Of a stretch of DNA of 64,000 nt, positions 24,888 to 33,917 are shown one piece after another. Both the position numbers and the translations under genes were made by a program. The DNA lies in NCBI GenBank assembly GCA_963771465.1, contig CAVYTU010000017.1:32001-96000 (forward strand), written 5' to 3'. The stretch's first letter is position 1. The number at the start of each line of letters is the position of its first letter. The notes below the pieces were generated by a model, which made no database searches, had not been told where the DNA came from, and saw nothing but the letters and a program-made list of their open reading frames with translations. The DNA is from an uncultured delta proteobacterium (GTDB lineage Bacteria; Desulfobacterota; Binatia; UBA9968).

Positions 24888-26048
24888 ATGCGCCACGATT
24901 TTAAGATTTATGATTCGGACACGCACCTCAATCCCTCGGCCGAAACCCTGGAGCCCTATTTCGATGCCGCCATGCGCAAGCGGCTGCCAGAGTGGGAGAG
25001 CTGCAAGGTGCCATTTCGTATCGGCTGGGCCGGCGAGATTTTAGAGCCGCCTTATCGCCACCGTTATCGGTTTAAGCAAAGAGCCGGCTGGCGCGAGGAG
25101 TTGCGTATTCTAGGAGAGGCGGGTCCCCGGCAGCATGTCGAGCATCACTTCCCGAAGTTCATGGGTAGTCGTTTCCCGACCCCGGGCGGCTCTGATGATG
25201 ACGCTGAAGCACGTGTTCGGGATATGAACGAGGAGGGAGTGGACGTGCAACTCATGCTTCCCGGATTGCCGCCGGCCACCGACGACGCCGAAGTTGAAAT
25301 CGGCTTTATCCAGGCCAACCATCGCTTTACCGATGACTTCTGCCGCAAGCAACCGCACCGTCTCAAGTCTCTCATCGTAGTGAGTAGCAAAGCGATCGAA
25401 CAATCGGTGCAAGAAATAAAAGCATGGGCGCGTGCGCCATGGGCCGCCGGCATTCATCCCAACCTGGCTGAAGGCGTTCCCATCGACCATCCGGACCTCG
25501 AACCGATCTGGGCCGCGGCCAACGACGCAGGGCTTTGCGTGACGCATCACAGCTTCACCTCCGGCTATCCCGGTTACCGCGATCTCTGGGACAATCCCTT
25601 CATCGGCCGCACTGCCTCGCACCCGTGGGGCGCCATGAGAGCCGTGACGGCATTTTTCGGTGCCGGGATCATGGATCGCTACCCTGACATTCGCTATTGT
25701 ATCCTCGAGTCGGGCTTTGGCTGGCTGCCGTTTTGGGCCGCGCGCATGGACGACCAATGCGAATACATGCCTTATGCCCTGCCAAAAAATCTCGCTCGCA
25801 AACCCAGCGAGTACATGACCAGTGGGCGCTTCTTCGCCAGCGTGGTGATCCACGAAGGCGAAAAGATGGCCCGCATGGTCACCGAATTCCTTGGCGACGG
25901 CGTGTTAATGTATTCGTCCGATTATCCCCACGCGGAGTCGCGTTTTCCCGAGTCCACCAACAAGGTGCTCGGGTGGAAATCCCTGGGCGACCAAGTTATG
26001 GGAAAAATGCTCTGGGACAACGCCACGAAATGCTTTGGCGAGCCGTAA
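24888..26048 (+). CDS. Amidohydrolase_2 family protein
   Basis: 'DSDTH', 'LESGFGWLP', 'KPSEY' and 'SSDYPH'; AAGGAG RBS. Confidence 0.9.
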   Translation: MRHDFKIYDSDTHLNPSAETLEPYFDAAMRKRLPEWESCKVPFRIGWAGEILEPPYRHRYRFKQRAGWREELRILGEAGPRQHVEHHFPKFMGSRFPTPGGSDDDAEARVRDMNEEGVDVQLMLPGLPPATDDAEVEIGFIQANHRFTDDFCRKQPHRLKSLIVVSSKAIEQSVQEIKAWARAPWAAGIHPNLAEGVPIDHPDLEPIWAAANDAGLCVTHHSFTSGYPGYRDLWDNPFIGRTASHPWGAMRAVTAFFGAGIMDRYPDIRYCILESGFGWLPFWAARMDDQCEYMPYALPKNLARKPSEYMTSGRFFASVVIHEGEKMARMVTEFLGDGVLMYSSDYPHAESRFPESTNKVLGWKSLGDQVMGKMLWDNATKCFGEP

Positions 26049-26164
26049 AGTATGTTCGGCAATTTTGGGAACCTATGCAAAATAATCATAACGGCCAATC
26101 GTGTTTATCGACCGGCGCGTTGAAAACAATGAATTGCGACGTCGCAGACGGAAAGGAGTCGCTC

Positions 26165-26302
26165 ATGAACCCACTCCGGCATTTGGGCATAGGTTCCGAA
26201 GAGCCCGAGAAGCTCGCTGCTTTTTATACAGAGGCTTTTGGCTTGCCAGTGTTATCCGCGGAACCGGCGGCTCGATTAGAGTTGTCCACGAGAGGGATTA
26301 CT
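26165..26302 (+). pseudogene. 5' remnant of a VOC/glyoxalase gene in frame with the downstream SBP
   Basis: AAAGGAG RBS before ATG 26165; 'LRHLGIGSEEPEKLAAFYTEAFGL' is the first VOC beta-alpha motif, with no further VOC sequence. Confidence 0.55.
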
Positions 26303-27436
26303 TTGCTTCGCCAGCTTGCAGTCTGCGCGCTTTTGATTCTGAGTTTTCATGTAGCGCGAGCCACGCCCGCCGCAACGGCGGCGGAGAAGCCCGGCTGGCA
26401 AGCGGAGTGGGAACGCACTCTTGCCGGCGCCAAGAAGGAAGGTGCGGTGTATCTGTGGGGTGATGCGGAGATCACGCACTCCGATATCATAGCAGCCTTT
26501 ACGAAAGAATTTCCGTTCATAAAACCGATCATGGTCACGGGAAAAAGCGGCGACCTCACAGTGCGTCTGTTATCGGAGAGACGCGCAGGAAAATTTTTGG
26601 CCGACGTTTATAGCGGGACAATGAGCGGCGCGGCATTCTATGAATTTTATCGCTCCGGGGTCTTCAATCCGATCAAACCTACTTTTATTCTGCCAGAGGT
26701 TGCCAGCGAGTCCGGCTGGCTCGGCGGCAAACACTATTACGTCACCGCCGAGAATTATATGATCCTGTACGAAGGCAATGTTGCGGGCACAAGCATCTAC
26801 TACAACACCCAGTCGGTAAGGCCCGACGACTTCAGCTCTTACTGGGATCTACTTGCCCCAAAGTGGAAGGGGAAAATTGGCATGTTCGAGAGGGCCGGTT
26901 CCAGTTTTCCAAGCTTGACGGCGGTCTATTACCATCCGCAACTCGGCCCTGATTATATAAAGCGCCTGGTCGGCGAAATGAACGTCACGGTTTCGCGCGA
27001 TCGGCGGCAAGCCACGGACTGGCTGGGAACCGGGAGGTTTGCTTTGTGCATCGGTTGCGGCGACGTGGAGCGCGCAAGCAGAGACGGTATGCCGGTGGGC
27101 GAGCTGGAGCGCAGACACCTTAAGGAGGCCGGAAACAGCATCACCCTCAATGGCAACAGCGCGCTTGGCCTAGTCAGCAAGGCGACTCATCCGCATGCCG
27201 CCGCGGTTTTTATCAACTGGTTTCTCTCGCGCAGAGGGCAGATGGTTTGGCAGGAGGTCATGAACGCAAAGGTGGGAGAACCATCGAATTCCATGAGGAT
27301 CGATATCCCGAAAGATAATGTCTTACCCGCAGCGCGGCGGGATGACGGTGAGAAGTACCAGGTCACCGGTTTTCTCGACCCAGCGCCTCCTACCAAACTT
27401 ATCGAGGAGCTTTTGTCAAAGAGAGGCGCGAAGTAA
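26303..27436 (+). CDS. ABC-type extracellular solute-binding protein (family 1/6, Fe3+/polyamine-like)
   Basis: GAGGGA + TTG 26303 opens a signal peptide; 'WERTLAGAKKEG', 'WDLLAPKWKGKI' and 'HPHAAAVFINWFLSRRGQ'. Confidence 0.8.
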   Translation: MLRQLAVCALLILSFHVARATPAATAAEKPGWQAEWERTLAGAKKEGAVYLWGDAEITHSDIIAAFTKEFPFIKPIMVTGKSGDLTVRLLSERRAGKFLADVYSGTMSGAAFYEFYRSGVFNPIKPTFILPEVASESGWLGGKHYYVTAENYMILYEGNVAGTSIYYNTQSVRPDDFSSYWDLLAPKWKGKIGMFERAGSSFPSLTAVYYHPQLGPDYIKRLVGEMNVTVSRDRRQATDWLGTGRFALCIGCGDVERASRDGMPVGELERRHLKEAGNSITLNGNSALGLVSKATHPHAAAVFINWFLSRRGQMVWQEVMNAKVGEPSNSMRIDIPKDNVLPAARRDDGEKYQVTGFLDPAPPTKLIEELLSKRGAK

Positions 27437-27481: not shown

Positions 27482-28609
27482 TTACTTAACTTTAAATTCC
27501 TTGGCCGCGTCCTCGTTGATTTCGAGTCCCAGTCCGGGGCTCTCACTTAAAGTCACCCAACCGTTCACGGTTTTGGGCGCATCTTTAAAAATCACGTCGG
27601 CGGCTAACCAGTTCGGTACGCGAACCTCGGCTCTCCATCCATTGGGAACAGCGGCAAGCAAGTGCAGGTCGAAATAATCGCCATTGGCGATCGGCAGATT
27701 GAACGCCTGAGCCACGGCCGCCACCTTCATGCCCATGGTGAAGCCGCCAACTGAGCCGACGTGGGGTTGCACAATGTCAACGGCGTGCTCGCTGGCTAAT
27801 TCGCACAGTTTGGCAAAATTATCTCGCTGGCCGGCGCCAATGGGAATGCTGGTGCTTTTGCGTAGCTCCGCCAGCAAGCGAGTATCATTGAATAGGATAG
27901 GTTCCTCGAACCACATTAGGTTATAGGGCTCGAGACGCTTGCACCAGCGTAGCGCGGTGTCGAACTTCATCAAGCAGTTGGCATCGACCATCAACTCGAC
28001 GTCGTCGCCAACGGCTTCCCTGACGGCTCTAATGCGGGCTTCATCTTCGGCTGGGTCATCCTCGCGGTGCTCGGCACTCGCTCCCGCACTGTCCATCTGT
28101 CCGTGAATGTTCATTCGGCCGACCACGATCTTGAGCCGTTTGTTGCCTTGCGCAACGAAATGCTTGGCCGCTTCAACCAGTTCCTCACGGGAATAACTCC
28201 TGAAGCCATAGGTTAGATAGGACGGCACAGACTTTTGCGCGCCGCCGAGCAGACGCCAAACAGGGATGTTAAAAAACTTGCCCTTGATATCCCAAAGCGC
28301 GACATCGACGGCGCTGACGCCAAAGCTCCACACTCCCGCGTGGGCACGGCTGTTGAAGTTCCACAGCATCTGATGCATCAAACGCTCGGTCTCCAGCGGA
28401 TCTTTTCCCTGGAGAAAAGGGGCGAGATCCTGGCGGATGAACGCGATCGTTGCCGAAGGCATAGCGCCGCCGATTTGCGAGAGGCCGACGATGCCATTAT
28501 CCGTTTTCACCTGTAGCAGAGTCACCGATTGAGACATCGGTGCCTTGACGAAGGGTGGAGTTACCGGAATATTAGCGAGCTCAAAAATTTCGATTGCGTC
28601 GATTTTCAT
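27482..28609 (-). CDS. Mandelate racemase / muconate lactonizing enzyme (enolase superfamily) protein
   Basis: 'SAVDVALWDIKGK', 'LLGG', 'LMVDAN', 'WFEEP' and 'PGLG'; AGGAGG RBS. Confidence 0.9.
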   Translation of the reverse strand: MKIDAIEIFELANIPVTPPFVKAPMSQSVTLLQVKTDNGIVGLSQIGGAMPSATIAFIRQDLAPFLQGKDPLETERLMHQMLWNFNSRAHAGVWSFGVSAVDVALWDIKGKFFNIPVWRLLGGAQKSVPSYLTYGFRSYSREELVEAAKHFVAQGNKRLKIVVGRMNIHGQMDSAGASAEHREDDPAEDEARIRAVREAVGDDVELMVDANCLMKFDTALRWCKRLEPYNLMWFEEPILFNDTRLLAELRKSTSIPIGAGQRDNFAKLCELASEHAVDIVQPHVGSVGGFTMGMKVAAVAQAFNLPIANGDYFDLHLLAAVPNGWRAEVRVPNWLAADVIFKDAPKTVNGWVTLSESPGLGLEINEDAAKEFKVK

Positions 28610-29012
28610 TGGTGCCTCCTGTGTATTTTCAATTGGATAAAGAGCACGGTAACGGAGAGGTTTTCAAGGGCCCGACTCAACTTCTTGAAAGATGTTTGGG
28701 GTCATGTGTGCCGTCAGGATTGAAAATCATTCCAGTCATTTTTCCCATTGCGGCAGCAAGTGAAGATGAACGAGAGCGCAATCGCCGCCAATCGTTAAGC
28801 CGCAGTCCTTTGCGTTGGTAAAGACTTCACTTAAGTTTGCGGCTGTGGTGAGCTTTTGATATGGCCTCGGTGTGTTACAGGAGTTTCGGCGGACCGTGAG
28901 GCGTGATGGAATCTGCTGATCGCCGTCGGGAAGAGTGGTCGTCACTGACCATTTACAATAATTTATGTTCGGATAGTTTTCACTCGTAGCAGTTCTAAGA
29001 AAGGGAACAAAC

Positions 29013-30689
29013 ATGGCACAGCTCGAAGTGTTCAATCCGGTGGCCGAGATTCGTGGTGACTTAACGCCTCAGGGGGTGAGCCCGCGCGTCGCGAGTCTGG
29101 AAGGGAGTACATTGGGGTTACTGTGGTCTGGAACCACCAATGGCGATGTGGCGCTGCGTCGAGTCGAACGGCACATGCGTGAGCGCTTTCCAAAAGTGCA
29201 AACAAAATTTTTTCAAGGCGACCATCCATTTACCGAGCGCCTTTTGCGCGAAGTCGCCGACACCTGCGATGGTGTCGTCATCGCAACGGCCGATTGAGGC
29301 GCATGTAGCTCGTGGAGTATCCACGGCGCAGTGCAGCTTGAGAAACTAGGAAGACCGGCCGTTACCATCGTGTCCGGGCGGTTGGAAGGGGATGCCGTCG
29401 AGAGCGCCCGTGTCTTCGGCATGCCGGAATTGCAGTACGTGCTGGTGCCGTGGATATATCGCAACCTCGATCCCGAGCGGGTGGTGGCGCAGACGGACGC
29501 GGCGATGGACGACATCGTGCGCGAGCTGACGACGCTGCGATCGGCAAAAAACCAACGCGTTGAAGCAGCAATGCGGGAACGATTCGAGGGCGACTCCCAG
29601 CTGGATGCGTTGGAGCGCATGAATGAGGAATTCCTCCTGCGTGATTGGGGCGATGGTTATCCCTTACTACCGCCGACGACCGAGGCGGTGGAGCGGATGC
29701 TGACGGGAACCTGTCTAGCACCAGACCATGTGTTGTGTGACGTGGCGCCAGGATGGGGATTGGCCACCGTCGAAAAGGTCGCCATCAATGCCGCTATGGC
29801 CGGTGCCAAGCCGGAGCAACTGCCAGTAATTTTGGCGGCACTCAAAGCGCTCGCCAAGCTCGACCCTGAGATGGCGCGCTTCTTCCTCATGTCCACCGGC
29901 TCCCATGCTTCCTTGCTGTTGGTAAACGGGCCCATTGCGAAGGAGATCGGCATCAATGCGCGCGCGGCCATGGGACCTGGACGGGATAATCAGGCCAATC
30001 TGATGATCGGCAGGTCATACACCCTATGCCTGAAAAATATCGGCCACTGGTATCCAGGACTGATGGATATGGACACCTTGGGATCGGTGCGCAAGTTCAC
30101 TGTGTGCGTGGCGGAGAATGAGGAAGCAAGTCCGTGGGAACCGTTTCATGTCGAGAAAGGATTTCGCAAGGAGGAGAGCGTGGTCACGCTCATGGGAACC
30201 CGAGGAGAGATTGACGTACCAGACCAAGGTAACACGACCCCGGAAGGTCTCTTGAAGAACATCGCGTTCAACTGCACCTTCGGCCAAAAAGATCTGCGCC
30301 ATAGCGCGGATCCAGATATCGGGCGTCGGGTCATCCTTATGGTGCCGCCTGATCCAGCGCGAGTCATCGGCGAGGGCGGCATCAGTAAAGTGGGAGCCAA
30401 GGAGTTCATCCATTTCCACGCCCGCAAATCGTTGCTTCACTCTCTGGCGTTCATGCCGTTGCGCGGTAGCAAGGGCGATCTGCGTTGGCTGCCGCGGCAA
30501 TGGCATTGGCTGCGTGATCTTTCGGATAAAGAGTTGGATGCGATCGTCGAGCCAGTGGTGGAACGCGCCGACCGATACGATCTGCTTTGCGTTGGCGCGG
30601 ACCGAGCCAAGTTTCAGATCATGCCGGGCGGGCCATTCAGCCCGTCGAGCGAGAACATCGACCAGTACCGCGCCGGCGCCAGACAGTAG
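29013..30689 (+). CDS. Putative selenoprotein (558 aa, Sec at TGA 29295-29297, UGAC motif): UGSC-family domain fused to its large partner domain
   Basis: ORFs 29013..29297 and 29331..30689 share a frame (offset 318 nt). Read-through gives ATAD-U-GACSSWSIHGAVQLEKLGRP. The C-terminal part has 'WGDGYPLLPPT', 'TVEKVAINA.MAG' and 'ENEE.SPW'. Confidence 0.85.
29304..29330 (+). promoter_or_regulatory. Candidate bacterial SECIS element
   Basis: UGU-a-GC-u-CGUGGA[GUA]UCCACG-GC-GCA hairpin with a bulged U; loop G lies 20 nt after the UGA. Confidence 0.7.
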
Positions 30690-30716: not shown

Positions 30717-31796
30717 ATGAAGCAAACAAGATCCGGATGCGGGTTTGTTATCAAGTCGTTGCTATGGGCATTTCTGATGAGCCCGCTAATCGTCGATGAC
30801 GCCTTCGCGCAAGCTCAGTTTTACGAGGGCAAAACGATTAGAGCGATTGTCGGACAAGCGCCCGGCGGACTGGGAGCTAATCGAGTCAAAGCTCTTGTTC
30901 CCTTTCTGCAAAAATATATTCCGGGAAAGCCGCACATTGTTACCGAGTACATGGACGGTGCGGGCGGCCAGAAAGCCGCAAACTATGTTCACAAGACCGC
31001 ACGTCCCGATGGACTTACGATCGGCTTTTGGTCCGCCGGTGCCGTGCCGGCAGCTGTGCTCGGACAAATGGGCGTGCTCTACGATCTCAAGGAAGCGATT
31101 TTTCTCGGCGCTCATCAAACGGGCCGGAGCACGACTTTCTTTACCCGTAAAGAACTGGGTCTGGATAATTTGGAGAAGCTACGCGCGGCCTCCGGTTTGC
31201 GCGTCGGTGCTCAGGCGGTGGGTCATGGCGGCTACTACGTCGCGCGACTCTTTGCTTATGTATTCGGTCTGAAGGAGCCCAAATGGGTGACAGGTTACAA
31301 TGGCCCCGAGTCCGATATCGCCATTACGACCGGCGAGATCGACAGCCGGGCGTCTGCTATCGACCAAATCTTGGCGTCACGACTCGACTGGGTCGATAAG
31401 GGTCTCATGCATTTCCATGCGATCTACGAGGTTCCCAAAGGTCAGCACCATTCTCATCCGCGATTTGCTCAACTTGCGGATTTTAGCGCCTTTGCCAAGT
31501 CCGAGAGAGAACGCAAAGTTTTAGATCTTTACCGCATCACGCAAAGCGCCTCCCATCCGGTGGTGTTGCCGCCGAAAACACCAAAGCAGATCGTGCAGAC
31601 CTTACGCGACGCGATGGCGAAAGTGTTCGACGATCCGCAATTCTATAAAGACTACGAAAAACTCACAGGAGAGGAACCTCGGCCGCTGACGGGCGATTTG
31701 CTCGAGCGGGAGATTCGCGACATCGGCGGCCAGCAAGACATCGCCGAGCTGCTCAAAAAAATCGGCGGCCCCGATACTTTGCCGGCGCGCCAATGA
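30717..31796 (+). CDS. TctC/Bug-family substrate-binding protein
   Basis: Signal peptide; 'FYEGKTI..IVGQAPGG', 'MDGAGG', 'PDGLTI' and 'GY.G....A...GEID'. Confidence 0.82.
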   Translation: MKQTRSGCGFVIKSLLWAFLMSPLIVDDAFAQAQFYEGKTIRAIVGQAPGGLGANRVKALVPFLQKYIPGKPHIVTEYMDGAGGQKAANYVHKTARPDGLTIGFWSAGAVPAAVLGQMGVLYDLKEAIFLGAHQTGRSTTFFTRKELGLDNLEKLRAASGLRVGAQAVGHGGYYVARLFAYVFGLKEPKWVTGYNGPESDIAITTGEIDSRASAIDQILASRLDWVDKGLMHFHAIYEVPKGQHHSHPRFAQLADFSAFAKSERERKVLDLYRITQSASHPVVLPPKTPKQIVQTLRDAMAKVFDDPQFYKDYEKLTGEEPRPLTGDLLEREIRDIGGQQDIAELLKKIGGPDTLPARQ

Positions 31797-32122: not shown

Positions 32123-33595
32123 CTAGTCCTGTGACGCTTTGGCTGCGGCCAACGGCGTCTGTAGTCCGAGCTCGTCAGCCACCGCGCGCTCGACGACGGT
32201 GCCCTTGAAGAAGTCGGGGTTGTTACGCGTATGCAGACTGGCGGCGTTGGTGAACGTGAACTCGCGGAAGTCCTGCACCGTTACGAAGCCCTTTTCCAAC
32301 ATCTCAAACGCTTCAGGAATCACGTCTCTGAAATCAGGCACGTCGAAATGGGTGAAGTCGGAGCTGAACACCGGTCGCAGGCGAACACCCATACGGGGAT
32401 CGAAGGCCCACATGGTCGCCCGGTCGTCGGCCTCGCAGCCGAAGTAGAAGTTGCCGGAGAAGACTGCCCGGACATCTTCTTTGGAGTTGATTCCCGCCGC
32501 TTCAAAATCGTCCGCGACGTGCTCAGGCCGCGCGAGCTCTTCAAGACTGCACTCCGGGCGGAATGCGTCCAGGCTGTTCATGATCGCGTCGGCGTTGGCT
32601 TTCAGTTTTTGATCGCCGTACTTGCCGATGAGCTGATGCATCTCGGCGACGCTGGTTGCGCTCGGATACTGCAACCCGGCGCGGCGGCGCTTCTCCCAGT
32701 GTTCGATCATGTCGGCGCACATCTGACAGGCCCAGCTGACGCCGCCTTCCATGAAACCGAAATTGAGGCTTGGGTAGCGCCGCACGAGACCGCCGAGGAA
32801 AACGCCGCGCGCGAAGGCGTGATTGGATTCGGCGAAGTGGCCGACGTGGTTGTAAGTGAAGTTGCTGATCGACGCGCGATCCGACCAGCGGCCGCTGCCC
32901 GAGTGTTGAGTCACAGCCACGCCGAGATCGACACATCGCTGCCATAACCGCTCGTAGTCATAGGGGCTGTCCAGCGCGATGGTATCGCAATACCAGGCGG
33001 CCTTCTGCGGGTCGATTCCTCCTTCCGCTGCGGCTGGGATCGGCCGCTCCTGGTTTCCCCGCAGCATGATCGCTTTAAAACCACGCTGACTGACCGCGTA
33101 TTCGAGCTCCTCAAGAGCTTCGTCCGGCGTCTGGGAGGGGATGATCGCAACCGGCGCAAACCTTGCGGCGAACGGCGCGAACATGTCCGCCGTCATCATG
33201 TTGTAGGCACGCACCGCGGCCCGATGCAGATCGCTCTGGACAATGCCGTTGATGCTGAGGCCGAAGCTCGGATAGATCAGCGCGAAGTCGATGCCCAATT
33301 CCGGCAGCCGTTCGTTCAGCAACGCCGGCAGCAGCGCCGTCGCCTTATCGAGCGTATTGCTAGTCACACCCCACCAGATGGTGCGCCGCATGCGGTTGTG
33401 CTGGCGTTCCTCCCAGGTCGCTTGGTACCACGCTTGATTGCGGCGCCACAGCGCTCGCATCTGATCGACCGATGCCGCGCCGGCCACTTCGCGCAGGTAC
33501 TCGAGAAAGATCGGTATCGGCTCCATCCAATGGCCATCGCCGTCGATCACCGGGTGCTTCAGCTCATCGTGGATCTGTGCCGCTCGATTCTCCAT
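32123..33595 (-). CDS. Amidohydrolase_2 family protein (long form)
   Basis: 'IDGDGH', 'FMEGG..W', 'YFGCEADD' and 'SSDFTH'; AAGGAG RBS before ATG 33595. Confidence 0.88.
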   Translation of the reverse strand: MENRAAQIHDELKHPVIDGDGHWMEPIPIFLEYLREVAGAASVDQMRALWRRNQAWYQATWEERQHNRMRRTIWWGVTSNTLDKATALLPALLNERLPELGIDFALIYPSFGLSINGIVQSDLHRAAVRAYNMMTADMFAPFAARFAPVAIIPSQTPDEALEELEYAVSQRGFKAIMLRGNQERPIPAAAEGGIDPQKAAWYCDTIALDSPYDYERLWQRCVDLGVAVTQHSGSGRWSDRASISNFTYNHVGHFAESNHAFARGVFLGGLVRRYPSLNFGFMEGGVSWACQMCADMIEHWEKRRRAGLQYPSATSVAEMHQLIGKYGDQKLKANADAIMNSLDAFRPECSLEELARPEHVADDFEAAGINSKEDVRAVFSGNFYFGCEADDRATMWAFDPRMGVRLRPVFSSDFTHFDVPDFRDVIPEAFEMLEKGFVTVQDFREFTFTNAASLHTRNNPDFFKGTVVERAVADELGLQTPLAAAKASQD

Positions 33596-33917
33596 GGTCG
33601 CGACTCCTTTCGCCAATCTACTTTCTCCTACCGCTAAGCCGGCGAATCGTCAATCGCAATCGATCACACGAGTGTTGGCCAAGCGTGTCTGAGATTTCGT
33701 CGCGATCAAAGTGTGTAGAGCTGCGACGCGTAAAGGAAACGGCGCTCTTGTTGGAGGCCACGAGAATAGTGAAAAGAAGATCGATGCAACAATTCAACGT
33801 GCTCGCGTTGTCGCCTAATTGGGACGTACGAAATTTTCTCTAAGCTCCGCACGAAATTCCCTTCCTCATTCATCCTCCATAGTGGCATAAATCTAGAGTT
33901 ATCTACTATTTACGCTC

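Follow-up and report, generated by a model that had tools for sequence, protein, structure and literature searches.

The stretch analyzed here, hereafter the window, comprises 64,000 nucleotides (nt) of contig CAVYTU010000017.1 from an uncultured delta proteobacterium of the Binatia (assembly GCA_963771465.1). At positions 29013..30689, two open reading frames (ORFs) lie in the same frame on the forward strand, one of 94 amino acids (aa) opening with ATG (29013..29297) and one of 452 aa opening with GTG (29331..30689), and the sole interruption between them is the TGA at 29295-29297. The codons that follow this TGA (GGC GCA TGT AGC TCG TGG AGT ATC CAC GGC GCA) encode the 11 residues GACSSWSIHGA and lead directly into the GTG. 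Translation of the TGA as selenocysteine (Sec, U) yields 558 residues with one recoded codon, U95, in the context ...VVIATAD-U-GACSSW...LEKLGRPAVTIVS, giving the motif D-U-G-A-C. The original prediction had described two ORFs sharing one frame across this TGA, with a GACSSWSIHGA spacer and a 558-aa product, and that description is exact. The gene contains exactly one in-frame stop and no frameshift, and ATG 29013 is the first ATG, GTG or TTG downstream of the preceding in-frame stop. The gene and its parts are as follows.

29000..29006, forward strand: putative Shine-Dalgarno-like purine-rich element AAAGGGA, 6 nt upstream of ATG 29013, proposed from the sequence only
29013..30689, forward strand: complete predicted selenoprotein gene, UGSC domain fused to a partner domain, 558 codons plus a TAG stop
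29028..29531, forward strand: UGSC domain (Pfam PF24696), residues 6-173, five beta-alpha units in the structural model
29295..29297, forward strand: TGA predicted to be read as selenocysteine (U95), after strand 87-93 and before helix 96-111 in the model
29304..29306, forward strand: TGT encoding Cys98, probable resolving cysteine of U-G-A-C; 25 of 40 full-length homologues also have Cys here
29308..29327, forward strand: SECIS-type (selenocysteine insertion sequence) hairpin, 6-bp core CGUGGA/UCCACG with loop GUA (RNAfold)
29565..30686, forward strand: conserved partner domain, residues 185-558, 374 aa, no family model

Selenocysteine at the in-frame UGA

The evidence from homologues, RNA structure and decoding machinery indicates that the gene almost certainly encodes a genuine selenoprotein, with U95 predicted as Sec. 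A single Pfam domain, UGSC (PF24696), straddles the TGA, matching residues 6-173 to profile positions 2-171 of 172 with 110.8 bits against a cut-off of 25. The NCBIfam model NF041046 scores 95.2 bits, under its equivalog cut-off of 125, and by the NCBI rule the gene is a divergent fused member of the family and not an equivalog. These matches bear out the proposal of a hidden UxxC selenoprotein, and the gene is an unannotated member of the known UGSC selenoprotein family. The family is treated in two reports by Zhang and Gladyshev (PMC1976440, 2007; PMC2398784, 2008), and the accessible portions of these reports, as well as of PMC9312934 and PMC13188914, present it as a predicted selenoprotein family of unknown function. 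Like other members, the protein fits the family model with its N-terminal 173 residues across the Sec codon, carries a U-G-[S/A]-C motif and belongs to a group with a strong preference for Sec. It differs from them in its length, with a 374-aa partner attached in a product of 558 aa where the NCBIfam model has 147 positions, and in having U-G-A-C rather than U-G-S-C.

A phmmer search with the read-through protein against 1.84 billion representatives returned 4515 relatives at E<=1e-3. Many of these are 430-460 aa long and start at query residues 103-118, just past the UGA, and others, of 528-600 aa, align from residue 1; the Cys homologues in this second size class match the read-through protein end to end. 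Cys occupies the U95 column in 26 of 40 full-length database homologues; the other 14 have Ser (6), Thr, Ile or Ala (2 each), or Gly or Leu (1 each). The best 120 database homologues are all 319-460 aa long and cover 57-81% of the read-through protein, and have therefore been called from a start downstream of the UGA. It had been anticipated that standard gene callers would split such a gene, and all of the best 120 listed relatives indeed begin after the UGA; annotation pipelines thus cut UGSC fusion genes at this codon.

We also compared the DNA of 80 related loci drawn from the GTDB species genomes: 67 carry TGA opposite U95, 6 have a Cys codon, 1 a Thr codon and 1 an Ala codon, and the remaining 5 could not be aligned at this position. 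As expected for a Sec codon, homologues therefore align across the UGA predominantly with Sec or Cys in its place. Judged by record titles, their carriers include Dehalococcoidia and other Chloroflexota, Candidatus Entotheonella, Beta-, Alpha- and Gammaproteobacteria, Acidobacteriota, Desulfatiglans and other Desulfobacterota, Binatia, Methylomirabilota and one Robertmurraya (Bacillota). The Robertmurraya locus (L049) is a Sec form, and the set also contains a Cys form from Nonomuraea corallina (L041); both are candidates for a cultured carrier. Sec is thus favored over Cys by 67 to 6; in Table 2 of PMC2398784, as far as its text was accessible, the Sec:Cys counts are 255:21 for UGSC and 321:7,880 for the Trx-like 1 family.

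The genome also harbors the complete machinery that had been named as a check on the prediction. It encodes a tRNA-Sec (76.7 bits; SeC(tca) by ARAGORN) and a selA-selB-selD cluster in which each gene exceeds its family cut-off. The selD gene (C14:200711-201637, L013; handles beginning with C, L and P are our own) carries one in-frame TGA itself, suggesting that SelD is a selenoprotein as well. A translation-GTPase-like match to the selB model at C14:13177-14205 (minus strand; 85.7 bits, below cut-off) also contains one in-frame TGA.

The hairpin at 29308..29327 lies 14-33 nt from the U of the UGA, and its core is extended by two further pairs with a bulged U. Folded as a single sequence, the 72 nt after the UGA are unexceptional against shuffles (z -1.67; 15 of 200 shuffles equal), and Rfam returned no match, either across the whole window at gathering scores or within 29200-29450 at E<=10, so the hairpin does not correspond to any SECIS model catalogued there. 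Comparative analysis was performed on the 48 nt from the TGA, folded for the window gene and 66 of the 67 TGA loci (L087, with its best match on the opposite strand, was omitted), and most of these have a common hairpin built from the S-W-x-x-H-D codons. The alignment of the window gene with 49 main-group loci (50 Sec forms) excludes the identical rows L038 and L048 and 15 loci of two subgroups with other post-Sec peptides and hairpins. On this alignment, the 8-bp stem (columns 15-22 with 26-33) shows standard pairs in 95.8% of cells versus 90.6% after shuffling, a level that none of 500 shuffles reached, and controls in which the stem was slid pair in 16-50% of cells. Six of the eight stem pairs are changed on both sides (15 cells versus 2.9 expected), and these double changes fall at third codon positions, as in the replacement of G-C by A-U at columns 18/30 and 15/33, so that protein conservation does not explain them. 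The fixed hairpin has a mean energy of -11.5 kcal/mol in the 50 Sec forms (from -7.0 to -12.6) and is weaker in 8 Cys, Thr or Ala forms (+4.2 to -8.3). The loop bases G23 and U24, together with the bulged U a few bases earlier, are arranged as in the fdhF SECIS of E. coli.

The two subgroups display hairpins of their own. One (L053, L055, L059, L060, L064, L066, L067, L068 and L092) has a post-Sec peptide of the GSCTKFLVYNG type and a different hairpin, the stem of which seems to begin inside the UGA. The other (L051, L069, L080, L084 and L086) has a GSCTFVGVAGT-type peptide, again with a different hairpin.

It is highly improbable that TGA 29295 is instead a true stop that separates a 94-aa peptide from an independent 452-aa protein starting at GTG 29331. 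Such a reading follows translation table 11, agrees with what gene callers did in the best 120 listed relatives, and fits the unexceptional single-sequence fold and the absence of Rfam matches, but it would cut one Pfam domain in two and strand the best-conserved family motif, G-x-C-x-x-W, within the 11 codons between the TGA and GTG 29331. The replacement of TGA by Cys in full-length homologues, the covarying hairpin and the presence of the Sec machinery argue further against it. Elsewhere in the host TGA does serve as an ordinary stop, since it terminates 3 of the 16 long ORFs within the window. An even smaller probability attaches to the TGA being a sequencing error or a recent nonsense mutation in a pseudogene. 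Decay of this kind does occur in the genome, where several frameshifts and stops disrupt a paralogue at C14:928016-929583, yet in the window gene the single in-frame stop falls at the Sec position of the family with no frameshift, and the same TGA recurs in 67 of the 80 loci, from unrelated assemblies, and in four other copies of this genome.

The UGSC domain and its relation to GrdB/PrdB

A full-length AlphaFold2 model of the read-through protein, built on 145 sequences, reached a mean predicted local distance difference test score (pLDDT) of 94.4 and a predicted template modelling (TM) score of 0.94, and both domains are therefore confidently placed relative to each other in the model. Residues 33-173 form five beta-alpha units as assigned by DSSP, with U95 at the junction between a strand and the N-terminus of the following helix. 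Foldseek matched the UGSC part to flavodoxin-like azoreductases and to the flavodoxin domains of flavodiiron proteins (best E 3e-4, target TM ~0.4), and VIA-align matched residues 27-179 to Rossmann-, CheY- and flavodoxin-type chains, with a best Z of 11.5 (root-mean-square deviation, rmsd, 2.8 over 127 residues) and many matches at Z 9-11. All 50 structural matches listed for this part are of the Rossmann/flavodoxin/CheY type, although absence from such a list does not by itself exclude a family. No thioredoxin family was matched by Pfam in the read-through protein, and a sequence search of the PDB with the family profile returned nothing (best E 0.17).

The UGSC domain thus models as Rossmann/flavodoxin-like and not as thioredoxin-like, and the Trx-like fold guessed for UGSC in 2008, according to the accessible text of PMC2398784, is not borne out by this model. 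With thioredoxin systems the protein shares a redox-type U/C-x-x-C at a helix N-terminus, and Pyr_redox_2 flavoproteins are found fused to, or encoded beside, relatives of its partner domain; it differs from them in its five beta-alpha units, in its flavodoxin-, Rossmann- and CheY-type listed matches and in lacking a thioredoxin match in Pfam. The substrate-attacking reductase chemistry that the original prediction had proposed in place of a plain thioredoxin remains conjectural.

The original prediction had also likened the Sec region to that of glycine and proline reductase GrdB/PrdB. Using hhalign, we aligned the UGSC domain with four PF07355 selenoproteins of the same genome, and Sec was placed on Sec with a probability of 90.6% (E 1.3e-6, 47 columns); a deeper UGSC profile gave 89.1% (E 2.3e-6) over 85 columns, reaching both domain ends. 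The shared unit comprises a strand, Sec-G-x-x, a helix, E-K-x-G-I-P-x-V and a further strand, aligned without gaps. At the level of local profile similarity, the Sec-bearing half of the UGSC domain and the C-terminal Sec segment of GrdB/PrdB are probably related. Searches for a broader correspondence were negative: the read-through protein has no PF07355 match at E<=1, hhalign left the first 330 residues of the GRDB proteins unaligned, and the partner domain did not align significantly with the GrdE-like (PF09338) proteins encoded in the genome (probability 3.2%). No GrdE/PrdA-type or pyruvoyl-type partner gene is adjacent, the neighbors being MR/MLE, amidohydrolase and solute-binding-protein genes. 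The product is therefore not a member of GrdB/PrdB, as it lacks a PF07355 match, the ~330-aa N-terminal part of GrdB and an adjacent GrdE/PrdA-like partner, and the proposed likeness holds at the profile level but does not extend to family membership. In the reading favored here the protein would nevertheless share with GrdB/PrdB the principle of a Sec protein that works with a second, substrate-specific polypeptide or domain. In PrdB, the U-x-x-C motif is used for reductive C-N cleavage. A search of the PDB with the four-paralogue GRDB profile returned nothing at E<=1, and no solved GrdB/PrdB structure was therefore found by sequence for comparison.

The genome harbors five PF07355 genes (286-439 bits; loci L103-L108).

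C17:161512-162549: PF07355 gene
C11:115398-116438: PF07355 gene
C7:3954-5009: PF07355 gene
C13:124779-125825: PF07355 gene
C15:776900-777939: PF07355 gene

In every one of these ORFs a TGA directly follows ...LT[S/A]T, and the frame stays open beyond it, encoding G-T-S-T-R-S-G-A-A-I-T-T-E-L-E-K-A-G-I-P-T-V, so that the genome has five additional selenoprotein genes split in this way. The L103 copy, the one scanned for neighbors, has a PF09338 GrdE-like gene upstream. The match to the C15 copy falls into three pieces in different frames, which may reflect a frameshift.

The partner domain, its fusions and the gene neighborhood

Pfam and NCBIfam scans assigned no family to the 374-aa partner domain, and one search returned 1736 relatives at E<=1e-5. 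Near-invariant positions include D214 (137/142), T222 (133/142), T252 (134/143), N329 (135/142), R334 (136/142), E368 (135/137) and W375 (133/137). Modelled alone, the domain reached a pLDDT of 93.9. Foldseek found no match for it at E<=1e-3, the best being a class I fumarate hydratase (E 7.5e-3, probability 0.41), followed by cyclic amide hydrolases. Against 48,161 chains, VIA-align gave no match at Z>=8 and six at Z>=5, with a best Z of 5.8 (rmsd 3.0 over 87 residues), and all matches at Z>=5 cover only parts of the domain. These comparisons of a predicted structure amount to no fold assignment, and are not proof of a new fold. UGSC/Unknown_1 fusion selenoproteins appear in Global Ocean Sampling data in Figure S1A of PMC2398784, as far as that source was accessible, and the partner domain is probably this Unknown_1. 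In four relatives of 709-741 aa (P0166, P0216, P0224 and P0229), the partner domain is matched in two stretches with no Pfam family, and these may be tandem duplications.

The genome contains six UGSC loci, of which five are intact: the window gene, two more fused copies, two split copies and a degraded one. Each of the other four intact copies has one TGA at the same site. The fused copies lie on C18 and C11, the latter with the motif H-U-S-T-C. In the split copies, near 441 kb and 457 kb of C17, a stand-alone UGSC gene with a TGA, in an open frame of 183 or 189 aa, precedes a separate gene for the partner domain. The degraded copy, C14:928016-929583 (minus strand; L016, L020, L022), is the closest paralogue, with 56% identity and the motif NAA-U-GSCCSW, and its several frameshifts and stops make it a pseudogene or an assembly error. 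Tandem or nearby extra UGSC-type copies, with TGA at the same site, also occur at L054 (three), L053 and L079 (two), L060, L067 and L087, and the order of the two domains is reversed in one database representative, P0192.

Links to thioredoxin-reductase-like flavoproteins recur among the relatives of the partner domain. Twelve relatives exceed 655 aa, of which three combine the partner domain with Pyr_redox_2, eight contain UGSC and one carries unrelated domains. In the three flavoprotein fusions, the partner domain is N-terminal and a thioredoxin-reductase-like Pyr_redox_2 domain spans residues 363 to ~640; the partner domain of one of the relatives, P0301, is 41% identical to that of the window protein over 282 residues. 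In the C11 copy with H-U-S-T-C (C11:145524-146720, minus strand; L021), a gene for a TctC-type binding protein lies upstream and a 308-aa Pyr_redox_2 gene follows directly on the same strand, and at L036, a Cys form, a gene for a Pyr_redox_2-thioredoxin fusion lies directly upstream. In four relatives (P0297-P0300, 670-705 aa), an extra 115-150 N-terminal residues precede the UGSC and partner domains; one source labels them 'Fe-S cluster biogenesis protein NfuA', yet Pfam scans of two of them gave no Nfu domain at E<=1e-3.

The following genes flank the selenoprotein gene in the window.

24888..26048, forward strand: Amidohydro_2 gene
27482..28609, divergent orientation: MR/MLE enolase-superfamily gene
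30717..31796, forward strand: secreted solute-binding-protein-like ORF with a signal-peptide-like N-terminus, 27 nt past the stop
32123..33616: Amidohydro_2 gene

The ORF at 30717..31796 matches TctC weakly (E 3.8e-4; 20.5 bits against a cut-off of 27) and, judging by its position, is possibly co-transcribed with the selenoprotein gene. Several solute-binding-protein genes lie near the latter. One ORF of 579 aa (25697..27436, forward strand) overlaps the amidohydrolase gene at 24888..26048 by ~350 nt; its solute-binding match starts at residue 310, and its true start therefore probably lies much further downstream. Among the five intact copies of the genome, a solute-binding-protein gene adjoins four and an Amidohydro_2 gene lies upstream of two, an adjacency that is weak evidence because such genes are frequent in the window anyway.

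We extended the neighborhood scan to the 44 of the 80 loci that had usable flanks, with near-duplicates omitted, and obtained 88 flanking ORFs. Thirty-two of these have no Pfam family; the remainder include TctC (5, at 3 loci), TetR (3), MmgE/PrpD (2), succinyl-CoA-synthetase-like (2) and acyl-CoA dehydrogenase (2) genes, with MR/MLE, ComA-like, thioredoxin reductase-thioredoxin (TrxR-Trx) and DsbA-like genes occurring once each. No conserved partner gene emerged across the 44 loci, the nearest flanking ORFs being highly varied. In two unrelated genomes, the UGSC/partner unit is closely followed by a ComA-like gene of the phosphosulfolactate synthase family, PF02679 (L072:5650-6504, and C17 near 443 kb, L018:2667-3617).

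Proposed function and significance

On balance, we favor the interpretation of the protein as a two-module selenium-dependent reductase. SelB and tRNA-Sec would decode UGA 29295-29297 as Sec, guided by the hairpin at 29308-29327. The UGSC domain would then act as a selenol/thiol redox module, with U95 as the selenolate and C98 as the resolving thiol, and the 374-aa C-terminal domain would bind the substrate, probably a small imported organic acid or amine. The U95 selenolate would act in the site of the partner domain and be resolved by C98 as a selenenylsulfide, which a thioredoxin-reductase-type system would re-reduce. From the features described above we infer the reductive chemistry, the direction of electron flow, the action of Sec in the partner site and the class of substrate.

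Several observations weigh against this interpretation. Neither Sec nor Cys is present at position 95 in 14 of the 40 full-length homologues, and some family members therefore work without a U95 redox center. Two cysteines of the partner domain are not universal, being Cys in 104 of 144 (the MAGC motif) and in 89 of 137 sequences, and the window protein has Ala at the MAGC column where those 104 have Cys. The hhalign match to GrdB/PrdB is local and was obtained with a thin profile of four paralogues, at a probability near 90% and not 99%. No thioredoxin or reductase gene adjoins the window gene, and since flanks are varied across the loci, with TrxR-Trx and DsbA-like genes at 1 of 44 each, the genomic context names neither a substrate nor a fixed reductant.

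These observations leave some room for a different division of labor, in which the UGSC domain would be a thioredoxin-like dithiol/selenol carrier or redox switch that regulates or protects a non-reductive C-terminal enzyme, such as a hydrolase, lyase or isomerase. The placement of U-x-x-C at a helix N-terminus in the model resembles that in thiol-disulfide oxidoreductases, the accessible portions of PMC2398784 and PMC13188914 group the family with Trx-like redox proteins, and 14 of the 40 full-length homologues have neither Sec nor Cys at the site. The faint fold hints for the partner domain, toward hydro-lyases and cyclic amide hydrolases, and the amidohydrolases, MR/MLE and MmgE/PrpD enzymes among the neighbors point the same way. 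We nevertheless regard a carrier or switch as unlikely. Five beta-alpha units and a full set of listed Rossmann/flavodoxin/CheY-type matches do not suit a thioredoxin-like carrier, the Sec preference of 67:6 is unlike that of the Cys-dominated Trx-like families, and both the fusion of the partner domain to thioredoxin-reductase-like flavoproteins and the relation of the Sec segment to GrdB/PrdB argue for the two-module reductase.

More tentatively, the two-module reductase may represent an undescribed class of Sec-dependent reductases, in which a Sec module sharing ancestry with selenoprotein B is combined with a catalytic fold absent from the PDB and a TrxR-type electron supply; we consider this a possibility with the odds somewhat against it. 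The accessible portions of the UGSC literature contained no Rossmann/flavodoxin-like fold of the Sec module, no profile-level relation to the Sec segment of GrdB/PrdB and no fusions between the partner domain and thioredoxin-reductase-like flavoproteins, although no search was aimed at any of these three claims.

UGSC is reported among the most abundant selenoprotein families of aquatic metagenomes (PMC2398784), and a 2026 review (PMC13188914) lists it among families with largely uncharacterized biological functions, in the portions of both sources that were accessible. The analysis provides several handles on UGSC function, namely a Sec module that models as non-thioredoxin-like and is probably related to GrdB/PrdB, a very large partner family without a Pfam model, and natural fusions to thioredoxin-reductase-like enzymes. 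With its complete Sec machinery and five intact copies, the genome offers in the gene at 29013..30689 a compact fused example for testing the long-standing question of what this abundant family does. If the proposed class of reductases is real, the five intact copies, several of them beside solute-binding-protein and amidohydrolase genes, would correspond to a set of reductions, each specific to a substrate, in the degradation of imported organic compounds.

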